Of a stretch of DNA of 9,891 nucleotides, positions 1 to 9,891 are shown in pieces (positions within the stretch are counted from its first letter, which is position 1; every line of letters begins with the position of its first letter). Source of the DNA: a virus. Lineage: Duplodnaviria; Heunggongvirae; Uroviricota; Caudoviricetes. Location of the stretch: the IMG/VR virus record IMGVR_UViG_2681813320_000006, positions 1-9,891 of that record. The stretch is one strand, 5' to 3'. A program made the position numbers and the translations under genes. Below the pieces are notes generated by a model. The model made no database searches, had not been told where the DNA came from, and was given only the letters and a program-made list of their open reading frames with translations.

Positions 1-7
1 AAAAAAA

Positions 8-175
8 TCAAGCATTATGCAGGCTGTTTCTTTTTATCACCGGCCACAGCAATACCACAATGCCGCAGACCAGCACTCCATCCGCCAGCACCGACATGAT
101 CCTGCTGGTGAAATCCACCATCACCACCAGAAACAGCAGGAGTGCCACAGCGGCCAGACGCAGTTTTACCGTCAC
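8..175 (-). CDS. Possible small two-helix membrane protein (about 55 aa); could be holin-like, very uncertain
   Basis: Minus-strand ORF not in the supplied track. GTG at 175-173 overlaps the TerB-like stop (GTGA) with GGAG about 8 nt upstream; stop TGA at 10-8. Translation has two hydrophobic stretches (LRLAAVALLLFLVVMV, GVLVCGIVVLLWPVI). An internal ATG at 121 is an alternative start. The G/T-rich strand could produce hydrophobic codons by chance. Confidence 0.3.
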   Translation of the reverse strand: MTVKLRLAAVALLLFLVVMVDFTSRIMSVLADGVLVCGIVVLLWPVIKRNSLHNA

Positions 176-603
176 AGGTGGTTCTCCAGTCGCAGGCCAA
201 GAACACCAGCAATCTCTTCCAGAACCTTACGCTCTTCCGGCTCAATTTCACCATCTGCTTCAGCAATGGCCACCGCCACATCCAGCACATCTTCCGCTTC
301 ACGCGTATCGTGTTTCACATCTTCAATTTCACGCAACGCTGCACGACGACCAATTTTAAAATTGGTGTCAAGCTGACCTGTGATCGTGGCACTGATGGCA
401 TTAATTTCTGACGTAAATGCGGACAATGCTGGCTGGTTACGTAATACCTGTTCGATCTTCGCTTTCTCTGAAGTCTCACATTCACCATCTGCATAGGCCA
501 CCAGGTAGGCAGCATTAATAACCGCCTGTGCCAGATCGCGTTTCTCAAACTTTTTAATTTCAGTTGCTGCTCTGCGGGTTTTCTTTTTGAAGATTCCAAA
601 CAT
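172..603 (-). CDS. TerB-like (tellurite-resistance TerB family) domain protein, about 143 aa
   Basis: Track ORF 172..675 trimmed to the first ATG (603-601), which has AGGA 8 nt upstream; the track start at 675 is GTG. Acidic helical protein with AYLVAYADGE...AVAIAEADGEIEPEE pattern typical of TerB-like domains (recalled, not searched). Overlapping ORFs in other frames look non-coding. Confidence 0.65.
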   Translation of the reverse strand: MFGIFKKKTRRAATEIKKFEKRDLAQAVINAAYLVAYADGECETSEKAKIEQVLRNQPALSAFTSEINAISATITGQLDTNFKIGRRAALREIEDVKHDTREAEDVLDVAVAIAEADGEIEPEERKVLEEIAGVLGLRLENHL

Positions 604-734
604 CGTGACGTTCCTTTGGGTGGGTGAGCCAACGCCCGGGAGCGATCTGCCCACAGAGAAAGTCACACTGACCACTCCGTAAGCTCACCCCCGAAAGGCT
701 CTGTGGTTGATATGCGCCGGGCGTGGCGCAGATA

Positions 735-759
735 CAAAAAAGGCCCGCCGAAGCGAGCC
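735..759 (-). terminator. Rho-independent terminator downstream of the tRNA cluster
   Basis: On the minus strand: 7-bp stem GGCUCGC/GCGGGCC (one G-U pair) with UUCG tetraloop (759-742), followed by a 6-T run (741-736). The pairing is better on the minus-strand transcript than on the plus. Confidence 0.65.
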
Positions 760-772
760 TGGAAAATAAGTG

Positions 773-849
773 TGGCGCGTTGTAGTGGAGTCTAACCACT
801 GACCGATTGCTTAGAAGGCAATTGCTCTGTCCGACTGAGCTAACAACGC
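773..849 (-). tRNA. tRNA-Arg (anticodon UCU), phage-encoded, with an atypical T-loop
   Basis: Reverse complement folds as a 77-nt cloverleaf: acceptor GCGTTGT/ACAACGC, D-stem GCTC/GAGC, anticodon stem ATTGC/GCAAT with loop CTTCTAA, T-stem AGTGG/CCACT, discriminator G and CCA. The T-loop is TTAGACT instead of the usual TTCGAAT. Confidence 0.7.
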
Positions 850-929
850 ATGATGCTGATAATGGACCGCCACCGGGGACTCCGAATCTCGCACAGGGTG
901 ACGTTCTTTCCTGATGAGCTAGTGGCGGT

Positions 930-1005
930 TGGTGGCCCTTGCTGGATTTGAACCAGCGACCTGGCGATTATGAGTCACTCGCTCTCACCACTGAGCTAAA
1001 GGGCC
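930..1005 (-). tRNA. tRNA with CAU anticodon, most likely tRNA-Ile2 (lysidine type); tRNA-Met not excluded
   Basis: Reverse complement GGCCCTTTAGCTCAGTGGTGAGAGCGAGTGACTCATAATCGCCAGGTCGCTGGTTCAAATCCAGCAAGGGCCACCA folds as a 76-nt cloverleaf with 7-bp acceptor stem, T-loop TTCAAAT and anticodon loop CTCATAA. It closely resembles E. coli ileX/ileY as I recall them. Confidence 0.8.
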
Positions 1006-1045
1006 GATAACATAATGATAACGTTACAGAATAAATTCAGCAATA

Positions 1046-2104
1046 TCACTCTCTCTTTCTGATTAAATTCTGTACATCCCTTGCGGTCTGCTCAAAACGT
1101 CCGGTCTCCAGCTCAACGCCAATTGCACGACGCCCCAGTGCATTCGCTGCTTTGACTGTCGAACCGGACCCCATGAAGAAATCTGCAACCAGGTCTCCCG
1201 GACGACTGCTGGCGGTAATCATTTGCCGCAACATATCTGCCGGTTTTTCACAGGGATGTTTGCCCGGATAATACTGCACAGGCTTGTGCGTCCAGACATC
1301 CGTATAAGGAACGGCTGCCGATACGGAAAAATAACGCCGCAGTGATTTGTACTCTTCCAGCAGGCTGGCATACTGCCGGTTCAGCTCACTGTATGTGCTG
1401 ACCAGTTGGTGATGTGGCTTTTCCAGTTCACCCCGCTGATGTTTCTCTTCTGCCACCCGGGCAAACAGCACCTGAAGTTTTCTGTAATCATCCTCGTTCG
1501 GTAACTGCCACTGGCTGGCACTGAACCAGTGCGACACCATGTTTTTCTTTCCTGTGGCATCCACAATCTGTTTTGCCGTTATCCCCAGAGCAGCACGCGC
1601 ATCACGAAAGTAAGAAATCAGCGGGGCCATCACATGCTGTTTCAGTGCCCTGCCCTTCGCCTCATACCCGGCATCTTTCGGGCGATATGGCCCCTGGTAA
1701 TGTTCAGCAAACAGAACGCGCTCTGTGGCAGGAAAATATGCGCGCAGACGTTCTTTATTACACCCATTCCAACGTCCGGACGGCTTCGCCCAGATGATAT
1801 GGTTAAGCACGTTGAAACGTTCACGCATCATGATCTCAATATCAGATGCCAGGCGATGCCCACAGAACAGGTAAAGGCTTCCGGCAGGTTTTAACACCCG
1901 CCAGAACTGGGCCAGACAGTGGTCCAGCCACTTAAGGTAATCTTCGTCCCCTTTCCACTGATTGTCCCAACCGTTGGGTTTCACCTTGAAGTAAGGCGGA
2001 TCGGTAACAATCAGGTCAATGGAATCATCAGGCAGGGACTGAATAAAATGCAGGCAATCAGCGTTGATTAAATCAACACTGTTTATTTTTACAGTATTTT
2101 TCAT
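1046..2104 (-). CDS. DNA methyltransferase, beta class (N6-adenine or N4-cytosine), likely an orphan phage methylase
   Basis: 352-aa ORF with ATG start. N-terminal DPPY catalytic motif (LIVTDPPYF) precedes the C-terminal AdoMet-binding motif (FFMGSGST), the order diagnostic of beta-class amino-methyltransferases. No adjacent restriction endonuclease gene is visible. Confidence 0.9.
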   Translation of the reverse strand: MKNTVKINSVDLINADCLHFIQSLPDDSIDLIVTDPPYFKVKPNGWDNQWKGDEDYLKWLDHCLAQFWRVLKPAGSLYLFCGHRLASDIEIMMRERFNVLNHIIWAKPSGRWNGCNKERLRAYFPATERVLFAEHYQGPYRPKDAGYEAKGRALKQHVMAPLISYFRDARAALGITAKQIVDATGKKNMVSHWFSASQWQLPNEDDYRKLQVLFARVAEEKHQRGELEKPHHQLVSTYSELNRQYASLLEEYKSLRRYFSVSAAVPYTDVWTHKPVQYYPGKHPCEKPADMLRQMITASSRPGDLVADFFMGSGSTVKAANALGRRAIGVELETGRFEQTARDVQNLIRKRE

Positions 2105-2254
2105 GGATCAGTAAGCGTAACTCTGGTAGGCTCACTCTGCTTTTGCGCTAAAGCAGTGGGCCGTGGTTCGCTTGTGACCAGTAAGCATGAGCGAATGGCT
2201 GGCAGGTGCTACCAACACCCACCAGCCGCCCATTTTCACAGCAGGAAACCGCCA

Positions 2255-2458
2255 TTACTGGCAGCGTCTGAATTTATTCCCGTACCCGCCGTTATCCTTC
2301 GCCAGACCCGCCAGAACTAACTGAGTCAGTATTAACTGGCACTGGGCTTCGCTTACTCCGGTAGTTCTCGTCATCATGCGTGGCGTTACCCACTTGTCAG
2401 CAGGTAAGAAATGAAGGACTGCGGCGGCGGTTTCTGTCATATCTTGCTGTTTTATCAT
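2255..2458 (-). CDS. Hypothetical small protein (about 67 aa)
   Basis: Track ORF 2255..2482 trimmed to the second ATG (2458-2456), which has AGGGA about 8 nt upstream; the first ATG at 2482 has no Shine-Dalgarno. No recognisable motif. Confidence 0.45.
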   Translation of the reverse strand: MIKQQDMTETAAAVLHFLPADKWVTPRMMTRTTGVSEAQCQLILTQLVLAGLAKDNGGYGNKFRRCQ

Positions 2459-2580
2459 GTCTTTTTCCCTTCTGGTTAACATGACATACCAATAACTCTT
2501 GTCTAAAAAGCCAGCAAGATAAAAAGTCAGTATTCACGACCACCAGCGTGTTTACTGTACTGCACCAAGTTTACAGGTAC

Positions 2581-2606
2581 AAAAAACCGCTCGACGGCGG
2601 GTTTAA
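2581..2606 (-). terminator. Possible weak rho-independent terminator (candidate tR'-like late-region terminator)
   Basis: Minus strand: 4-bp all-GC stem CCGC/GCGG (2600-2597 with 2590-2587), 6-nt loop, then a 6-T run (2586-2581). The stem is short, so the call is marginal. Confidence 0.3.
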
Positions 2607-2736
2607 GCTGTGTGGCGAAGTAACCACTCTTAACAGATTAAGATAAAATTTGCGGACCGCGGTAATTTTTTTTGCTAAATTAAAGCCATATAAAAAATAA
2701 GCCCCATAAGAAATTATTAGCATACTAAGGTTTAGC

Positions 2737-3678
2737 ATGGCTACTATTGCGCAATCAAAGAAACAAAAAAAACTTAAAATTGGTTTTTACACCAGCAGTT
2801 CTGGGACTATCCGCAGCCATTCAGTTGCTAAGCAAGCAATTGAAAATCTGTATAATACTTGCGTAACCGTTACGAATAATCATTTTGATACCATCTATAG
2901 AAATAAAAAGTTAAAAATAGCTTTTATAAATAAAGATACAAAAGCTAAATATTTCTTCGGCTACATGTCATGCTCACGAGAAGAGTATCTCCTTCCTTAT
3001 ATTGGTGATGAACACTGGAATGAGCACAACATACCACTAGATGATAAAAAATACATAGTCGAAAGAACCTATTTTTTATATTATTACGATAGTGATATTT
3101 TAATATTAACTCAAAATCATCTTGGGCCGAAAGAATCGGATTTAGCTTATCTGCTTTACAGCCAGAGTGGTAATCCTGGAAATAACTTTGCATTCCAAGC
3201 CATCTGGAAAAAAGAGAGCGTCAAAGAGCTACTTGAAACAGGAAGTACTTTGAGAAGTTGTGATATTGTCCTGGCTGCTCCCAGGAACTTTGATGCAACA
3301 AATTACCAGCTAAATAGTTCATTTTCTAAGGAACTGGTAAATATGATGGTAGGGCTGGGTGGAACACGTCTCAAGTTAAATCTAAGGGGACGTGCATCAG
3401 GGAGAGTAAAAGTCAAAGGTTATTTATCAGATCTCGTTAAGGATGGTATTAAAGAACTCCTTGAAAAAATGCCGGGAATTGTAAAAAAAGCGGCAGTAAC
3501 ACAGCCCAAAAATACCGTTGAACAAAGTCTTCTTGATCAGGTACTCATTTCAGAAAAAAACATATATACCGTTAATGGTTATGGCACTGATAGTGATGTT
3601 CTGCAAGCCATGATTTCTGCTAAAATTGATAACAATGAATACCTTAAGCAATACGATATCAGCAAAAAGAAGGTATAG
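2737..3678 (+). CDS. Soluble 313-aa protein of unknown function; candidate sensor/activator of a two-gene phage-exclusion module (RexA-like by architecture)
   Basis: ATG at 2737 with TAAGG 6 nt upstream; stop TAG at 3676-3678. Strongly AT-rich (roughly one-third G+C by eye) with AAA/AAT/ATA-rich codon use, unlike the flanks. No Walker A, HNH or DPPY-type motifs seen. Same size class, gene order and N-terminal GFY motif as lambda RexA as I recall it. Confidence 0.8.
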   Translation: MATIAQSKKQKKLKIGFYTSSSGTIRSHSVAKQAIENLYNTCVTVTNNHFDTIYRNKKLKIAFINKDTKAKYFFGYMSCSREEYLLPYIGDEHWNEHNIPLDDKKYIVERTYFLYYYDSDILILTQNHLGPKESDLAYLLYSQSGNPGNNFAFQAIWKKESVKELLETGSTLRSCDIVLAAPRNFDATNYQLNSSFSKELVNMMVGLGGTRLKLNLRGRASGRVKVKGYLSDLVKDGIKELLEKMPGIVKKAAVTQPKNTVEQSLLDQVLISEKNIYTVNGYGTDSDVLQAMISAKIDNNEYLKQYDISKKKV

Positions 3679-3681
3679 GAT

Positions 3682-4125
3682 ATGTTATTGAAATACTTAA
3701 GAAACCTGATTGTAAGTGTTTTTTGCACCTTGTTCCTACTGAGGTATATCCCTCAGATGGGGCATGCTGACATACTTACAGCCTCCGGGGTTATTTCAAC
3801 TGTATCCGGTATTTTATTTGGTTTTATTTTAGCCACAATATCAATTTTTAGTGCTGCTAGCGAAAACTCAAATGGAATAATAAAAGCATTAAAAAACAAC
3901 AACATACTTCAAGTTATTATTGTAAATCTATTAACCGCAGGTGCATCTTTAATTACGGCATGCGTTATTGCTTTGATAGCAATGTTTGCCAATGAAAAGA
4001 CATTGTTACATGGAGAAAAAATAGAATTTATTTTAATTATCGAATCGTTATCTCTTCTTATCATTTCAGTAATAACTTTTGCCTTTACATGGAGAAAAGT
4101 AAACTGGATACTCCCCCACATTTAA
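3682..4125 (+). CDS. 147-aa integral membrane protein with four predicted transmembrane helices; candidate effector (RexB-like)
   Basis: ATG at 3682 with AAGAAGG 8 nt upstream, starting 4 bp after the upstream stop. Four hydrophobic segments (about residues 8-25, 30-58, 75-103, 114-138). The LFLLRYIP motif after helix 1 resembles lambda RexB LLFRHYIP as I recall it. Stop TAA at 4123-4125. Confidence 0.85.
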   Translation: MLLKYLRNLIVSVFCTLFLLRYIPQMGHADILTASGVISTVSGILFGFILATISIFSAASENSNGIIKALKNNNILQVIIVNLLTAGASLITACVIALIAMFANEKTLLHGEKIEFILIIESLSLLIISVITFAFTWRKVNWILPHI

Positions 4126-4148
4126 AAAGGGCAGAAATGCCCTTTTTT
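4124..4148. terminator. Bidirectional rho-independent terminator shared by the convergent cassette and the Q gene
   Basis: AAAAA-GGGCA-GAAA-TGCCC-TTTTTT: 5-bp stem (4129-4133 with 4138-4142), GAAA tetraloop, A-run on one side and T-run on the other, so it reads as hairpin plus U-tract on either strand. It sits between the cassette stop (4125) and the Q stop (4149). Confidence 0.6.
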
Positions 4149-4511
4149 CTACTCCATTTCAAGTTTAACATCCAGCATTGAAAGGCATCCATCAATAAAC
4201 CCTTCAGCCATCTGTATCTCTATACGTATCAATTTCTCATCTTTTTTGCGAGCTCTTGCAAGCTTTCTTTTCGAGATGCCATACAGGTAATGGGCCACAA
4301 TCAAAGAATGCTCGTACGGTTTTCGCTTTTTAAGAAGAGCAAGACAACCTTCAATAATTAATGCATCACTATCTGAACAAGCCTGACGTGTTTTGCTTGT
4401 ATAGGGAAGAAGCCCTTTAAACCCAGCAGCTATAGGAGAATAGTCTACTCCTGAACTATCACTCGCCGCCCATGCTCCCCAACGATCCAGAACCATTTGA
4501 ATATCACGCAT
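4149..4511 (-). CDS. Late-gene antitermination protein Q (short Q family, QuuD-like), about 120 aa
   Basis: Track ORF 4149..4526 trimmed to ATG at 4511-4509 (the track start is TTG), with GGAG about 8 nt upstream. N-terminus MRDIQMVLDRWGAWAA matches the E. coli DLP12 QuuD N-terminus as I recall it. Position after the replication module fits a Q gene. Confidence 0.75.
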   Translation of the reverse strand: MRDIQMVLDRWGAWAASDSSGVDYSPIAAGFKGLLPYTSKTRQACSDSDALIIEGCLALLKKRKPYEHSLIVAHYLYGISKRKLARARKKDEKLIRIEIQMAEGFIDGCLSMLDVKLEME

Positions 4512-4528
4512 CAACTTTCTCCACAAAA

Positions 4529-5524
4529 TCAGGCCAGCACGCCAATTGCCAGCGCGCGATCGATAAAACGAAATATCAGCTCCAGCTGGGAACCATACTT
4601 CTCTTCAAATGCCACGGTATCCGCATGCAGTTCGTCATGGTGTTTTCTGCACAAAGGCAACACAAAAAGGTCATGCGCTTTTGTACCCATACCACCCTGA
4701 CCATGACCAATCAGGTGATGAGGATCGTCGGCTGGCTTACCACAACATGCACACGGCTGCGTCTTAACCCAGCGCGTGTACTTTTCATTAACCCAGCGAC
4801 GACGTTTTGGGCGTAACATAAAAGACTCCGGCGACTCCGGATCCACTTTCAGCGCCAGCACCTTTTTCGCTTTATCCTGGATGATGCTGGTGGCAGGAAC
4901 CGAAGGCACAAGGTCACTTTCCCGGGTGACAGACGGCACAACAGGTTTCGGTAATCTCAGCGCCTTACGGGCTGCGCTTTCAGGTAAGGCATCCGCCAGG
5001 TCATTACGAATCAGCCACCAGCACAGTTCCGGCATTGTCACGGCATGGTTATCATCAAAACCGAGATCCCGACGGACTACAGACAACACCCAGCGGGCAC
5101 AGTTATCCGTTGCCATTGATTCCAGCCGTTCCGTGAACTGATCGCGCAGCTGGTTATCGCAGTGCCAGCACAGACGGATTGCGCCCGGAGCGTGTCGCAT
5201 TGTGGTCATGTTCTCGCTGTGCCAGTCGGAATGAGGCCACTGGCAGCCTTTTTCACGAAGTAACCAGCTTTCAAGACATTCCACTCCACCAGCACGACGA
5301 ATAACTGCCTCATTGCGGAACACGGCCCGAACGGCAGGATCATCCGCCAGCGGTTGTGATGCTGCCGGAACGGCACCGCTGGCGAAAGATGAATAACGTT
5401 CCGGCTCAGGCTCCAGCAGGACACGCCCCTGCATAAACAGGGGCATCAGCTCTGAACCGGGCCTGAACAATACAATCCCCATTCGCGGGGCAATTTCAGG
5501 AGTCAACAATGCTCTCACGGTCAC
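4529..5524 (-). CDS. DUF968-like prophage protein (YdfU-like) with a C-terminal Cys/His zinc-binding, HNH-like motif
   Basis: 331-aa ORF. C-terminus has CACCGKP...HHLIGHGQGGMGTKAHD...PLCRKHHDELH, a Cys/His cluster of the kind seen in DUF968/YdfU-type proteins. The track start at 5524 is GTG; a GTG at 5518 with GAGG upstream or an ATG at 5485 are alternatives, so the start is uncertain. Confidence 0.7.
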   Translation of the reverse strand: MTVRALLTPEIAPRMGIVLFRPGSELMPLFMQGRVLLEPEPERYSSFASGAVPAASQPLADDPAVRAVFRNEAVIRRAGGVECLESWLLREKGCQWPHSDWHSENMTTMRHAPGAIRLCWHCDNQLRDQFTERLESMATDNCARWVLSVVRRDLGFDDNHAVTMPELCWWLIRNDLADALPESAARKALRLPKPVVPSVTRESDLVPSVPATSIIQDKAKKVLALKVDPESPESFMLRPKRRRWVNEKYTRWVKTQPCACCGKPADDPHHLIGHGQGGMGTKAHDLFVLPLCRKHHDELHADTVAFEEKYGSQLELIFRFIDRALAIGVLA

Positions 5525-5569
5525 CTCAGCGAACGATATTGCATGAACACAGGAGAAAAAATTCAGCCA

Positions 5570-5827
5570 TCACGCAGTAAACTCCTTCACCAGAGTTTCA
5601 AACTGGCTTACCTTGCCTTCCAGTTCCGCCACGCAATCCACCAGCTCATCCACCGCCTTTTGTGTGCGGTGTTTTGCCTGCAGCAGATCACGAAGCGCCG
5701 GAGTAAGCTGCTTGCGGAGCGTATCCTTTGCCACGCTCATTTTTTCCATCTGTTCAGCACAACGAAGCATCTCCTGCGCCTGGCGACGAAGTTGTTCCGG
5801 TGAAACAGTGGCTGTTCTGTTATTCAA
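5570..5827 (-). CDS. Hypothetical small coiled-coil protein (85 aa)
   Basis: TTG start at 5827 overlaps the helicase stop (TTGA) with GGAG about 8 nt upstream, suggesting translational coupling. Charged helical sequence (EQLRRQAQEMLRCAEQMEKM...), no identifiable domain. Internal ATGs are alternative starts. Confidence 0.45.
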   Translation of the reverse strand: MNNRTATVSPEQLRRQAQEMLRCAEQMEKMSVAKDTLRKQLTPALRDLLQAKHRTQKAVDELVDCVAELEGKVSQFETLVKEFTA

Positions 5828-7224
5828 AATAAACGCTCCGCTTTACTGCCCGACATGCGGTTATTGCTGTATCTGCGCGGATTGCCCGGCGTCATGGGTG
5901 TGGAAAGCCCCCGGGCACTTTCCTGGTCCACAGGCAGAAAATGCCCGTTATGAAAACGTCGGTAAATGGTCCCGAGTGTGCCATTACGCTGTTTCGTGAT
6001 GTTGATTTCTGCTATGCCTCTCGCCTGTGTATCCGGGTTATACACCTCATCCCTGTAAAGCATCAGAATGATGTCGGCATCAGCCTCTATTTCCCCGGAG
6101 TTTTTCAGGTCTGAGTTCATGGGACGTTTATTGGGTCTGGATTCCACGCCGCGGGAGAGCTGGCTCAGAGCAATCAGCGGGAAACCGCCGGATTTTGCCA
6201 GGCTTTTAAGTCCCTTTGAGATTTCCCCCACCGCAAGGTCGTGACGCCCCGTGCTGCGGGTTTTAATCAGACCGAGGTAATCGACCACCACCAGCGCCGT
6301 TTCCGGATGCTTCATCCGGTGGTACCTCGTGGTTGCACATATCTCATCAATGGTCAGATTTGCCTGGTCCACCATCCAGATATTACGCCCCGTCATTCGT
6401 CCCACACCCTGTGAGAAACGTGCCCAGTCTTCGTCTTCAAAACGGGCAACAGACTTAAGACGGGATACCGGCATTCCCCCTGCTGCAGACACCATACGTT
6501 CACCAATCTGGATGTTCGCCATCTCCATGGTGAACAGAAGCACGCCATGCCCCTGCTCAGTCACCTTGTCGATGATGTCCAGCGCCAGTTCGGTTTTCCC
6601 CATCGAAGGACGAGCCGCAATGAATACCAGGTCGCCTGGCTCCATCCCCCCTGTTTTTGCGTCCAGTTCATCAATACCGGTCATCAGCGCCCTGGATTTC
6701 TCCAGTCCCTGATTCCGGCATTCAACACGGCCCACCACTTCCGGAAGGACATCATCAATGTGAACCGGCTGAATGACGCCCTTTCCGGTCGACAGTGAGG
6801 CCATCATGTTCTGCGCATCCTTCAGGGCATCTTCTGCCGCTTCGCAGGTATGTGCATCACGTAAATTCTGTAATGCTTCGGTCAGTGTTTTTTCTGCATC
6901 GCGCAGTACGGCATTTCGCCGCAGCGCTGCAACATAGTGCTCCAGTGAAGACTTCACCCAGGTTTTGCGCCCGGTGTCAGTAATCACCGGGGCAAGTTCC
7001 GGCATCTCATTGCACAGCAGCACGGGGTCAATGACGCCGGATACGCGGGCCTGTCTGCAAATCCCCGCGTAAATATCCCGGTACTGACGCACGAAAAATA
7101 CATCCGCCGGAAGCGTGGCCAGAATATCCATCACTTCCGGATCAGCCCCACGCAGAAAAAACGCGCCAATCACCGCACCTTCCAGGTCATCGTTACGCCA
7201 TGCCGGGTTGTTCTGGCTGGTCAT
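5824..7224 (-). CDS. Replicative DNA helicase, DnaB family (phage-encoded)
   Basis: 466-aa ORF with ATG at 7224 overlapping the upstream stop (ATGA). Walker A (ARPSMGKT), Walker B-like VVVDYLGL and DnaB-like downstream motifs (SGGFPLIALSQLSR). Size and N-terminal domain fit DnaB-type helicases such as P22 gp12. Confidence 0.92.
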   Translation of the reverse strand: MTSQNNPAWRNDDLEGAVIGAFFLRGADPEVMDILATLPADVFFVRQYRDIYAGICRQARVSGVIDPVLLCNEMPELAPVITDTGRKTWVKSSLEHYVAALRRNAVLRDAEKTLTEALQNLRDAHTCEAAEDALKDAQNMMASLSTGKGVIQPVHIDDVLPEVVGRVECRNQGLEKSRALMTGIDELDAKTGGMEPGDLVFIAARPSMGKTELALDIIDKVTEQGHGVLLFTMEMANIQIGERMVSAAGGMPVSRLKSVARFEDEDWARFSQGVGRMTGRNIWMVDQANLTIDEICATTRYHRMKHPETALVVVDYLGLIKTRSTGRHDLAVGEISKGLKSLAKSGGFPLIALSQLSRGVESRPNKRPMNSDLKNSGEIEADADIILMLYRDEVYNPDTQARGIAEINITKQRNGTLGTIYRRFHNGHFLPVDQESARGLSTPMTPGNPRRYSNNRMSGSKAERLF

Positions 7225-8099
7225 GCGGCAACACCTCCGATACGAGAACGGTAGCTGGGCCAGTTAAACGACAACCAGTTGCGCCCGCCATCGGTGATCC
7301 TGTCGGCAATCCGGGGACTGATGAACGCCCACAATTCTTCCGGTGAAAGGTTGCTGATCAAGATAGTTGGCAAAATACCCTCATACCGGGCATTGATAAT
7401 TTCCTGCAAAATGGCCATTTCAGCCGCACTGCCAAACTGAACGCCGACTTCGTCGATGATCAGCAAATCCAGTGACGCATAATGCTCAATGACGTCATCC
7501 GCTGTTTTTTCACTGTCATTCCGCCAGCAGTTTTTCACAGCACGGGTAAGGCGCATCACGTCGGTGATCTCCACACTGGCCAGATAGTTACGGATGATGT
7601 GTTTTGCCATTGATACCGCCAGATGATTTTTCCCGGTACCGCAACTGCCGGTCATAACAAGACTGGTACCGTTCTCCAGCATATCTGGCCAGTTCTCCAC
7701 ATAGCGGCGACAGGCCGCAAGATTTCTGGCTGCGTCAGGATTAACCTCCAGATAATTATCAAACTCGCAGTCCCGAAAACGCAGAGCAATTCCGGCGTTA
7801 TCAGTCAGTTCTTCCGCCTTGAGGGACGACAGCTCCATGGTCAAATCGTTGGCCTCAGCTATCAAGCAGTCAGGGCAGCATGAAATTTTTTCTCTGTCCT
7901 CGCCATTACGATCGCTCCACACCAGAATATGTGTGTGGTATTCGCCATGTTTTTCGCAACACCCGCGCCCTTCACGCATCCAGCAGGAACGATAAGGCCA
8001 TGGCTTTTCGCCCTTCTGAGCAAATGCAATCTCTGCCCGTAACTCATCCATCCGCGCCTGTAGTCTTGTTTGTTGTTCACGCAGGTTAAACGTCATCAT
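7221..8099 (-). CDS. DnaC/IstB-like AAA+ helicase loader with an N-terminal Cys-rich, probably zinc-binding, extension
   Basis: Walker A MTGSCGTGKNHLA and Walker B LLIIDEVG. Track start 8108 is GTG; the ATG at 8099 has GAGGTGA 5 nt upstream and is preferred. N-terminal region has CC...H.H...CCPDC cysteine/histidine clusters. Confidence 0.88.
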   Translation of the reverse strand: MMTFNLREQQTRLQARMDELRAEIAFAQKGEKPWPYRSCWMREGRGCCEKHGEYHTHILVWSDRNGEDREKISCCPDCLIAEANDLTMELSSLKAEELTDNAGIALRFRDCEFDNYLEVNPDAARNLAACRRYVENWPDMLENGTSLVMTGSCGTGKNHLAVSMAKHIIRNYLASVEITDVMRLTRAVKNCWRNDSEKTADDVIEHYASLDLLIIDEVGVQFGSAAEMAILQEIINARYEGILPTILISNLSPEELWAFISPRIADRITDGGRNWLSFNWPSYRSRIGGVAA

Positions 8100-8109
8100 C
8101 TCTGTCACC

Positions 8110-9018
8110 TCAGAATGTCAATTTGTCACTGGATTTACCGAATTTGTCAGACATGGCTCCCAGGCCAGCCAGGACATCGACCTGTCGCTGTCGCCCACCT
8201 CCGGGAGCAGATGGCTGTTGCCATGATTCGTCAAAGTGTCGATCGGGGCCAAAGAACGTCGACGCCTGCTTCACGAACTGAGTGCCGGTATTTCCTGAGA
8301 CACGCACCCAGGCGGCATAGCGTTTCACACCGTTGAGCATGGTTTCGGGTGTCACACCTTCCCTGATTCGGGCTTTCCAGGCTTTGAAGGCTGCTGACTT
8401 GGAATTACCACCAGCACGTTTGGGATATTCCTGCCAGGCCTGTTCAAATTCCGGTGAATATTCCTGTCGGGCAGAACGTGCTGGTGCAGACGCGTCAGCG
8501 GATGCGCCAATAGTGTTTTTACTCTCTGTAGTATTCTCTGAAGTAATCTCTGTTGTATTCTCTGTAAGATCGAAATTGGTTTTCCCTTCTCCGCGGCGAG
8601 GGGTTTCCCGTGTCCGCGGTGAAGGCTTTCCCTCCTCCGCGAAATTGGGTTTTACAGTTTCCCGAAAACGGGTTTCCCCATTTCGGGAAAACTGATTGTT
8701 TTCATTGATAATTTCATTAAGGCGCTCACAATCTATACGGTAGAACATTTTGTGCTCAAGACGCTTGTTGGTTTCAACCAAAATGCCTCTGGACACAAGA
8801 TGCTTACGCGCTACAGCCTGTTGTTCAAATGTAAGTCCTGTTTCGTGTTGTATCTCTTCACGCGTTTTATGTACGCCTTCCGCTGCATGTGCTTTATCCT
8901 GCCAGTAAAAAATCTGACCAAAGAAAATAACAGCGTGCGGACTTCCCATGTATTTAACGAGCCCAGGGTAATAAGCAACCGGATGTCCAAAATCGAGCAG
9001 AAGATCAGACGGACGCAT
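8110..9018 (-). CDS. Replication initiator (lambda O-like, origin-binding) with a repeat-encoded linker
   Basis: Track ORF 8110..9024 trimmed to ATG 9018 (GGAGGTG 5 nt upstream; the track start is GTG). The central protein region (TENTTEITSENTTESKNT, PRTRETPRRGEGKT) is encoded by DNA direct repeats, as in lambda O where the ori iterons lie inside the gene. It sits immediately upstream of the helicase-loader and helicase genes. Confidence 0.75.
   Translation of the reverse strand: MRPSDLLLDFGHPVAYYPGLVKYMGSPHAVIFFGQIFYWQDKAHAAEGVHKTREEIQHETGLTFEQQAVARKHLVSRGILVETNKRLEHKMFYRIDCERLNEIINENNQFSRNGETRFRETVKPNFAEEGKPSPRTRETPRRGEGKTNFDLTENTTEITSENTTESKNTIGASADASAPARSARQEYSPEFEQAWQEYPKRAGGNSKSAAFKAWKARIREGVTPETMLNGVKRYAAWVRVSGNTGTQFVKQASTFFGPDRHFDESWQQPSAPGGGRQRQVDVLAGLGAMSDKFGKSSDKLTF
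8523..8695. repeat. Iteron-like direct repeats inside the O-like gene (candidate replication origin) followed by an AT-rich stretch
   Basis: Four 12-bp tandem units containing TCTCTG (8523-8570). Five TTTCCC-containing units at 8581, 8603, 8627, 8658, 8673 (about 22-24 bp apart) with internal dyads such as CCCGAAAACGGG and TTTCGGGAAA. AT-rich segment at about 8690-8725. Confidence 0.6.
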
Positions 9019-9238
9019 AGCCACCTCCCAGGCGTTTAAACATTTTTCCGGACTGAAACGCCACCAGCGGATAACTCAGGGTATGAGTACGCCCCTGCAC
9101 CTGGCAGACAACCTTCTGACTTTCTGCATTGACCAGGCAAACCCGCAGAACGTGGCCGTTGCTGGTGGTGAACCACTGCCCCACACGGGGGCAACGGTTG
9201 TATCGGTGATACAGGGAATTAACGATGTAGCGGATCAT
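9005..9238 (-). CDS. Hypothetical small protein (77 aa)
   Basis: ATG at 9238 with GGAGGTG 5 nt upstream, overlapping the upstream stop (ATGA). Its 3' end overlaps the O-like start by 14 nt. No recognisable domain. Confidence 0.55.
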   Translation of the reverse strand: MIRYIVNSLYHRYNRCPRVGQWFTTSNGHVLRVCLVNAESQKVVCQVQGRTHTLSYPLVAFQSGKMFKRLGGGYASV

Positions 9239-9429
9239 GGACGCACCTCCGCCGTAGTTACGTATTTAACTGGGCTACCTTTCATTGAGATGGTTTCACA
9301 CATCCCTGCCGCTTTCAGTTCCGCCGTTTTTCTGGATTTATAGCGACGATGCCAGACAGATACATCCGTGCGAACTGATACATCGTTTCTGTATTCCGTA
9401 GTGGAGATGATGATTTCGTAACTAATCAT
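9235..9429 (-). CDS. Hypothetical small protein (64 aa)
   Basis: ATG at 9429 with AAGGAGGTG 5 nt upstream, overlapping the upstream stop (ATGA). Part of a translationally coupled chain of minus-strand genes. Confidence 0.5.
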   Translation of the reverse strand: MISYEIIISTTEYRNDVSVRTDVSVWHRRYKSRKTAELKAAGMCETISMKGSPVKYVTTAEVRP

Positions 9430-9731
9430 GGGTGCACCTCCTTGTCAGAACCATTCAGCCTGTAATCAACAAGTGCAGCACCAAAAACTGCATCACCTAC
9501 ACGGTCGTACAGTTTGCCAGCCAGCGGAGATTCAACGGCCTTAAGCATTGGATAAAGCTGGCTTGTCCAGATTTGGTGGATTTCTCGCAAATGCAGGTAT
9601 ACGCCTCTGGCGTTTTGTGCGACAGATGGCATATCAGCCGCACCAACTCCTGATAAGCACCTCTCCATCTGGTTAAAGGCATTGATGTATGCTTCTTTGA
9701 ACCGGGCAGCACGTTTACCCGTGAAACCCAT
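9426..9731 (-). CDS. C-terminal portion of a Rha-like (Phage_pRha-type) regulatory protein; N-terminal part appears interrupted or truncated
   Basis: The reading frame stays open upstream of ATG 9731 to a TAA at 9851-9849 and encodes ...SEYTDASGRKLPCYQITRDGFAFLAMGFTGKRAARFKEAYINAFNQME, which resembles the conserved core of Rha-family proteins as I recall it. No ATG/GTG/TTG start lies between that stop and 9731, and 9731 has no Shine-Dalgarno. Confidence 0.45.
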   Translation of the reverse strand: MGFTGKRAARFKEAYINAFNQMERCLSGVGAADMPSVAQNARGVYLHLREIHQIWTSQLYPMLKAVESPLAGKLYDRVGDAVFGAALVDYRLNGSDKEVHP

Positions 9732-9891
9732 AGCAAGAAACGCAAAACCGTCGCGGGTGATTTGGTAACAAGGGAGTTTGCGGCCTGATGCGTCGGTGTA
9801 TTCACTTAACAGTAAGCGTGCAGCAAGAACCGTATTGACGGGGATGTGTTATTCAGTCGGCAGTGCTACGCGCCAGGGGAGCAGTTCGCCG

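Follow-up and report, generated by a model that had tools for sequence, protein, structure and literature searches.

A probable, very diverged Rex-type phage-exclusion cassette beside the Q antiterminator gene of a lambdoid Escherichia coli prophage

Five Rex-like systems have been counted in total, among them RexABpp (PP_5643/PP_5644) of the Pseudomonas putida prophage P1, which was described in 2026 (PMC12894663). That RexB acts as a channel is itself a model, also in lambda (PMC11077077; PMC12894663). In Sbash gp30/gp31, a Rex-like system that has been tested, gp31 is a four-helix membrane effector whose central cytoplasmic loop is essential (PMC6426596). Sucellos (SclA/SclB), from the chromosomal integron of Vibrio cholerae, is structurally RexAB-like and is missed by the Rex Pfam domains; it needs both of its genes, includes a predicted transmembrane pore (SclB), acts by abortive infection, and has homologues that occur preferentially in prophages of Enterobacteria, 'often in Salmonella' (bioRxiv 10.1101/2024.07.02.601686). 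Here we describe two adjacent genes, A and B, in 9,891 nucleotides (nt) of viral DNA (positions 1 to 9,891 of the IMG/VR record IMGVR_UViG_2681813320_000006; hereafter, the window). The window comes from a lambdoid Escherichia coli prophage; over the region of interest, its identity to Enterobacteria phage cdtI is 99.5%. We think it probable, though well short of certain, that the two genes form a prophage cassette encoding a very diverged phage-exclusion (i.e., abortive-infection) system of the Rex type.

In lambda as here, adjacent and co-oriented genes on a lambdoid E. coli prophage encode first a cytoplasmic protein of about 300 amino acids (aa) and then a membrane protein with four helices and about 145 aa (313 and 147 aa here, 279 and 144 aa in lambda), and in one relative of the present pair, that of Pseudomonas phage AUS531phi, the order cI-A-B reproduces the lambda layout of cI-rexA-rexB. 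However, sequence identity is at noise level (14% in structural alignment), and the Pfam families PF15969 and PF15968 are not matched, gene A belonging instead to DUF6731. The location also differs: the present pair lies outside the immunity region, in the interval from Q to the presumed late promoter; it is encoded on the opposite strand and has its own terminator.

Like the present genes, Sbash gp30/gp31 and gp44/gp43 of Gordonia phage CarolAnn lie away from the repressor and are missed by the PADLOC and Pfam Rex models (those of PADLOC recognise lambda, but neither the present pair nor Sbash gp30/31). They too are pairs of a cytoplasmic and a four-helix membrane protein, expressed from a prophage and serving in anti-phage defence, and the conserved central loop of B, predicted to be cytoplasmic, corresponds to the essential loop of gp31. 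They differ in their actinobacterial hosts and in the larger size of gp30 (372 aa). RexABpp, compared by description, lies downstream of a repressor, whereas the pair here lies beside Q. Compared in the same way, the published properties of Sucellos all fit the present pair, Vibrio homologues included, and the pair may well be a Sucellos homologue, although the genera in which we find it are mostly other than Salmonella. As a Rex-type system the pair is new or newly recognised: RexAB-like systems that escape Pfam have already been published for Sbash and CarolAnn (2019), for Sucellos (2024) and for P. putida (RexABpp, 2026).

Proposed kinship of genes B and A with RexB and RexA

A preliminary description, made from the sequence of the window, had proposed that gene B encodes a 147-aa product with four hydrophobic helices, and on this the open reading frame, Kyte-Doolittle hydropathy and an AlphaFold2 model agree. 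The frame runs from an ATG at 3682 to a TAA at 4123-4125. Its product has hydrophobic segments at about residues 5-23, 31-57, 74-102 and 114-136, spaced as in lambda RexB. Four helices are likewise present in the AlphaFold2 model (pLDDT 87), with the long helices at 2-22, 28-62, 75-102 and 114-146; within the central loop, the model adds a short one (66-72). Judged only from the distribution of lysine and arginine (+2 at the N terminus, K68 and K71 in the loop, R138 and K139 at the C terminus), the prediction is that the cytoplasm holds the two termini and also the central loop (NGIIKALKNNNIL), which is conserved.

The same description had compared LFLLRYIP, in gene B, with a RexB motif given as LLFRHYIP. 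The motif was given correctly: lambda RexB, as translated from NC_001416, reads CYLLFRHYIPGVSF and carries LLFRHYIP at residues 24-31, and its counterpart in gene B occupies residues 17-24. The proposed likeness in size and topology also held up, in that the two proteins differ little in length (147 vs. 144 aa) and their hydropathy peaks are spaced alike. As for alignment to RexB, the match is weak both pairwise and by profile, and the profile match lies above all shuffles. In a single BLASTP comparison, residues 9-54 of gene B align with residues 17-62 of RexB, motif included, with E = 0.012.

A comparison of families by hhalign, in which a 22-sequence alignment of the B family was set against a 13-sequence alignment of RexB, returned a score of 31.6 (E 1.2e-4, probability 55%, 63 columns). 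The aligned span joins residues 13-80 of B (alignment columns 17-82) to residues 19-85 of RexB and takes in the first two helices, the loop that joins them and the beginning of the central loop. Within it, conserved positions of the two families coincide at H28/H38, D30/D40, G43/G51, A51/A59 and S54/T62 (B/RexB). Because membrane proteins readily match one another, we ran shuffling controls: the maximum score over 300 column shuffles, made under three schemes of which one held the hydrophobic segments in place, was 23.7, and reversed alignments scored 15-16. With 56 sequences, the score of the real comparison was 28.6.

Searches of profile and structure collections add several points of contact. 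The RexB family of Pfam is reached by one of the 22 B-family members (E 0.032), and phrog_17119, an uncharacterised family, is weakly matched both by lambda RexB (0.034) and by members of the B family (1.1e-4 and 7.5e-3). When the B model was compared by Foldseek with the predicted viral structures of BFVD, rank 2 went to a 165-aa protein of mycobacteriophage Sbash, and gene 31 of Sbash encodes exactly 165 aa. The first-ranked matches of B and of A in that collection both come from the uncultured phage ctylc9.

What decides the case for B as RexB-like is its obligate partner, gene A. Gene A has a two-domain fold of the RexA/RdgC type, and its structural relatives are those that were reported for RexA itself in the paper on the RexA structure (PMC11077077). 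In sequence, gene A matches Pfam DUF6731 (PF20505) with 41.3 bits, the gathering cut-off being 27 (E 1.8e-10); 18 of 29 gene A homologues match this family too, and 'DUF6731 family protein' is also the name assigned by PGAP. The resemblance to RexA in sequence is faint: BLASTP and hhalign repeatedly aligned the same stretch of A and RexA (FLYYYDSDILILTQNHLGPKESDLAYLL vs. FLFVEGDTIGFARTVFGPTTSDLTDFL), and a GPxxxDL motif is common to the A family and RexA. With an extended A family, hhalign gave a score of 29.9 against RexA (E 0.0024, about 60 columns), compared with a maximum of 22.1 over 120 column shuffles; the RexA alignment used was small and thin, as the contigs with RexB homologues yielded only RexA fragments or pseudogenes. 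Together these results support, on the strength of sequences and predicted structures, a reading of gene B as the RexB-like partner of a RexA-like gene A.

Two observations on the annotation and fate of these families arose along the way. In vB_EcoS-733R5 (ON470608.1, 30253-31191) and vB_EcoS-716R3 (ON470622.1, 15461-16399), a homologue 87% identical to A is labelled 'portal (connector) protein', almost certainly a mis-annotation; no papers came up in literature searches for DUF6731, PF20505 or the RefSeq accessions of the proteins. Separately, a true RexB is intact beside a broken RexA both on a Sodalis contig, where RexA has an in-frame stop or is a pseudogene (L018, 1253-2500), and in a metagenomic prophage, where RexA is in two fragments (L019, 1632-2476), and RexB may thus be kept without RexA.

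Constancy of the pair and its presumed effector

Scanned with the A alignment, IMG/VR yielded 80 loci in which A is 43-100% identical to the protein of the window. A homologue of B directly follows A in all 76 viral loci with an intact A. Across alleles, the gap between the two genes is -20 to +28 nt; a single locus, where A is truncated, has a gap of 88 nt. All 34 distinct downstream proteins match the hidden Markov model (HMM) of the B family with E <= 6e-39. The identities of A and B to the window proteins drop in step, passing through 100/100, 87/70, 82/63, about 63/51, about 46/44 and 44/35%. In the window, translational coupling of the two genes is likely, because the stop codon of A (3676-3678) comes only 3 nt before the start of B.

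The 34 distinct intact B homologues of viral contigs are 145-157 aa long and 34-100% identical to the window protein, and gene B falls in phrog_8552 of PHROGs. A word-indexed search finds close homologues of B only; when 1.8 billion representatives were searched exhaustively by profile, about 20 distant ones more came to light, 20-50% identical. Among five distant metagenomic homologues, each lies directly downstream of a DUF6731 or DUF6731-like gene of 289-321 aa.

The hosts of the pair are here mostly Escherichia, Klebsiella, Citrobacter, Yersinia and Serratia, with homologues in Vibrio too, and its genomic contexts vary. A scan of genome contigs with the A alignment gave three loci. In Pseudomonas phage AUS531phi (MN585195, our locus L105), genes for a CI-like repressor, A and B follow one another on one strand, the latter two matching the family HMMs at 8.8e-49 and 2e-19, and a CI-like gene is also found near the pair at two other loci (L005 and L006). 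Another context is beside tail genes. In a 14.6-kb Vibrio element assigned to Tectiliviricetes/Vinavirales (PQ189356.1; L106), A and B (351 and 150 aa, at 1389-2896) come right after the integrase, so that carriage of the pair extends to elements that are non-tailed or satellite-like. A homologous Vibrio protein (P0067) is encoded near toxRS, outside the integron.

Two side results concern single loci. The B gene of AUS531phi (3880-4282) is annotated as a 118-aa product with a GTG start and without the first hydrophobic helix; its frame is open upstream and overlaps the end of A, and the true start probably lies upstream of the annotated one. The idea that L010, where the pair is accompanied by an insertion sequence and toxin-antitoxin genes, is a Vibrio integron was dropped, there being no match to the VCR repeat sequences tried and no NCBI record.

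If such a pair followed the logic of mycobacteriophage Butters gp30/gp31, the roles of its members would be reversed: A would be the anti-phage or toxic effector, and B would do no more than tether or sequester it until infection. Butters works in this manner with the same combination of a cytoplasmic and a four-helix membrane protein (PMC7542560; summarised in PMC12894663), and our computed results are compatible with either partner as the effector. A carries a premature stop in four of the 80 viral loci (L034, L035, L050 and L062) and no broken B was seen, every locus with an intact A having an intact B; these cases are too few to weigh. The precedents, however, point in the other direction. 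In four of the five described Rex-like systems (lambda, Sbash, CarolAnn and P. putida), and in Sucellos as well, neither gene suffices alone and the effector is the membrane protein. Moreover, helix 2 of gene B (G43, G47, A51) and its central loop are strongly conserved, which suggests that B is more than an anchor. We therefore regard the reversed arrangement as unlikely and retain the RexB-like protein as the presumed effector.

An accessory cassette at a fixed site

Phage 1720a-02 (KF030445) provides an empty site. It aligns to positions 725-2673 and 4153-5539 of the window with only 21 nt between the two segments, and the cassette is therefore window 2674-4152 (1.48 kb). The guanine-plus-cytosine content is about 34% in the cassette and about 52% in its flanks. 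Of 5426 complete E. coli genomes, 2978 match the flanks, but only 25 carry this allele of the cassette. The orientation of the cassette is opposite to that of the phage late genes. The hairpin that follows gene B folds with -13.4 kcal/mol (z = -3.8), and none of 200 shuffles folds equally well. It is symmetric, with A/T runs visible in the sequence on either side, and by these features it can be expected to terminate both B and the convergent Q.

Table 1. Coordinates of the cassette, its genes and signals, and neighbouring features in the window
Feature	Position	Strand	Basis or remarks
Accessory cassette (moron): genes A and B, short upstream region, terminator	2674..4152	.	Empty-site comparison
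Gene A: 313-aa cytoplasmic protein, Pfam DUF6731 (PF20505), RexA-like fold; presumed sensor/activator	2737..3678	+	
Ribosome-binding site of gene B, AAGAAGG	3667..3673	+	8 nt upstream of the start, within the 3' end of gene A; read from sequence
Gene B: inner-membrane protein, four transmembrane helices, RexB-like; presumed effector	3682..4125	+	Open reading frame, hydropathy, AlphaFold2
Bidirectional intrinsic terminator hairpin, AAAAAGGGCA-GAAA-TGCCCTTTTT	4124..4147	.	RNA fold; between convergent B and Q
Conserved non-coding block beside the start of A	~2586-2672	-	Palindrome CCGCGGTCCGCAA, sequence TGTTAAGAGTGGTTAC, terminator hairpin; outside the cassette
Q antiterminator gene	4149..4526	-	Convergent with gene B; counterpart in E. 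coli fS25a is 'antiterminator Q family protein' (PGAP)
tRNA-Arg (tct) and tRNA with cat anticodon	773-849 and 930-1005	-	Between the methyltransferase and TerB-family genes
Gene for a TerB-family (tellurite-resistance-like) protein	172-675	-	Prophage late region; Pfam TerB E 4.7e-16

The site that the cassette occupies is close to fixed (Table 1). In 73 of the 80 viral loci the pair is convergent with a Q homologue (47-100% identical) and is wedged between Q and the conserved non-coding block. This block hardly varies among 13 alleles, although identity among the A proteins is only 44-100%. It includes a terminator-like site (2598-2586, minus strand) in which the sequence of the hairpin stem varies and its pairing is kept; the homologous stretch of phage Ayreon is annotated 'terminator', and a search of Rfam gave no match for the block. 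We presume that it comprises the late promoter, a Q-utilisation (qut) site and the terminator tR'; gene A is transcribed divergently from this presumed promoter.

Between flanks that are 88-98% identical, A falls to as little as 45% identity, and the neighbouring DUF968 gene stays at 98%, a pattern suggestive of a fixed site at which alleles are exchanged or selection is diversifying. Such strong allele divergence between near-identical flanks is typical of a diversifying accessory locus. The cassette combines this divergence with low guanine-plus-cytosine content, discrete insertion boundaries, a terminator of its own and an orientation opposite to the late genes, all of them features of a moron.

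A placement this exact is hard to explain by chance, and it could be taken to mean that the pair mainly regulates the development of its own prophage, with phage exclusion as a side effect or absent altogether. There is some precedent in lambda, where RexA acts without RexB to bias the CI-Cro switch (PMC11077077). But the Q/late-gene site is a classic moron position, used by the Stx genes in related phages, and may be simply a tolerated insertion site. The same pair is found in quite different company, i.e., with tail genes, with the integrase of the Vibrio element and with the cI gene of the Pseudomonas phage, and phages with an empty site exist. On this evidence a primarily regulatory role seems quite unlikely. 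A narrower proposal is that the near-fixed placement beside Q and the presumed late promoter, kept across alleles with only about 45% identity, reflects a functional link, in which A would sense or modulate Q-dependent late transcription. Exclusion, or the prophage's own decision to lyse, would thereby be coupled to the late switch, in a parallel to the action of lambda RexA on the CI-Cro switch; we give this proposal a similarly slender chance.

The remaining features of the region are those of its prophage. The replication genes, the DUF968 gene and the Q antiterminator gene are on the minus strand, as are, beyond genes A and B, a DNA methyltransferase gene, two tRNA genes and the TerB-family gene; the plus-strand pair fills the stretch between Q and the methyltransferase. 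The tRNA with the cat anticodon is called Met by ARAGORN, and the homologous gene is called Ile by PGAP. In phage 1720a-02 (L102; 2371-3360), the DUF968 gene beside Q carries the label 'antitermination protein Q', as does the real Q, probably through annotation carry-over.

Proposed mechanism and implications

If the cassette is a Rex-type exclusion system, its action can be sketched by analogy. The lysogen would make both proteins, with B inactive, and A, to judge from RexA, would be a dimeric DNA-binding sensor. Infection by another phage would activate A, by way of either a phage protein or an intermediate of replication or recombination, and activated A would engage the cytoplasmic loop of B. 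B would then oligomerise or open, such that the membrane depolarises or leaks; the ATP level would drop, growth would cease and the incoming phage would be unable to replicate. The preliminary description had cast B as an ion-channel-type effector that collapses the membrane potential; by analogy with lambda, Sbash, P. putida and Sucellos, B may well act in this way. Expression in the lysogen, interaction of A with B, the trigger, membrane damage and phage exclusion are all features that we infer for the pair.

Several results weigh against assigning the pair to the Rex type. Most of them concern the failure of established models to recognise the two proteins. For gene B, no RexB model was matched in Pfam (E <= 10), PADLOC, PHROGs or NCBIfam, and lambda RexB itself strongly matches Pfam PF15968, the PADLOC RexB model and phrog_14878. 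For gene A, no RexA model was matched in PADLOC, PHROGs or NCBIfam, and the RexA family of Pfam was matched neither by the window protein nor by any of 29 family members. Searches of PDB sequences with the single A protein and with the A profile did not find the RexA structure, 8TWQ. Neither lambda RexA nor lambda RexB is among the top 50 Foldseek matches in BFVD of A and B, respectively; for B, that search gave weak E-values (about 1e-2), and matches between four-helix bundles are easily obtained.

The positive comparisons have limits of their own. The hhalign probabilities are only 55% for B and RexB and 12% for A and RexA, each covering part of the protein, and the C-terminal half of B has no alignment to RexB. 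The LFLLRYIP motif is not conserved in distant members of the B family and is weak evidence alone. When the A and B families were compared by hhalign with the single sequences of Sbash gp30 and gp31, no similarity was found. Finally, upstream of gene A a consensus scan identified no sigma-70 promoter, and candidates picked by eye were poor.

Gaps of this kind (no significant RexB-model match, a motif that is not conserved family-wide, alignment of the N-terminal half only), along with scattered weak matches of B-family members to many membrane families, one of them a holin family at E 0.006, might suggest that B is an unrelated small membrane protein, of a superinfection-exclusion, holin-like or immunity type, whose likeness to RexB is a coincidence of transmembrane composition, but this is very unlikely, given that shuffles preserving composition and position never came near the real hhalign score, that the obligate partner A has the RexA fold, and that B runs opposite to the lysis genes and in no case occurs apart from A. 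Among other pore-forming effectors, gene B itself gave E 2.3, which is not significant, with the RTasSLATT model of PADLOC; no Pfam holin family was matched, and a profile search of PDB sequences with gene B gave no match.

We thus return to the pair as a probable, very diverged Rex-type system. Since systems of this kind are already known, the finding is useful rather than surprising; what stands out is the near-fixed placement beside Q. If the assignment is true, it would provide a function for DUF6731 and for an unannotated membrane family (phrog_7651 and phrog_8552), both of which now pass as 'hypothetical', or wrongly as 'portal protein', in prophages of E. coli, Klebsiella, Yersinia, Vibrio and Pseudomonas and are missed by PADLOC release v2.0.0 (2023). 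It would also provide a diverged Rex example in a lambdoid E. coli phage, the sequenced phage cdtI, with a tractable host. Its many alleles, diverged in nature and all at one fixed site, would form a ready series for mapping the specificity of the trigger, and the system could, if it is what it appears to be, help to settle how RexA-type sensors activate RexB-type proteins, 70 years after Benzer's rII experiments.
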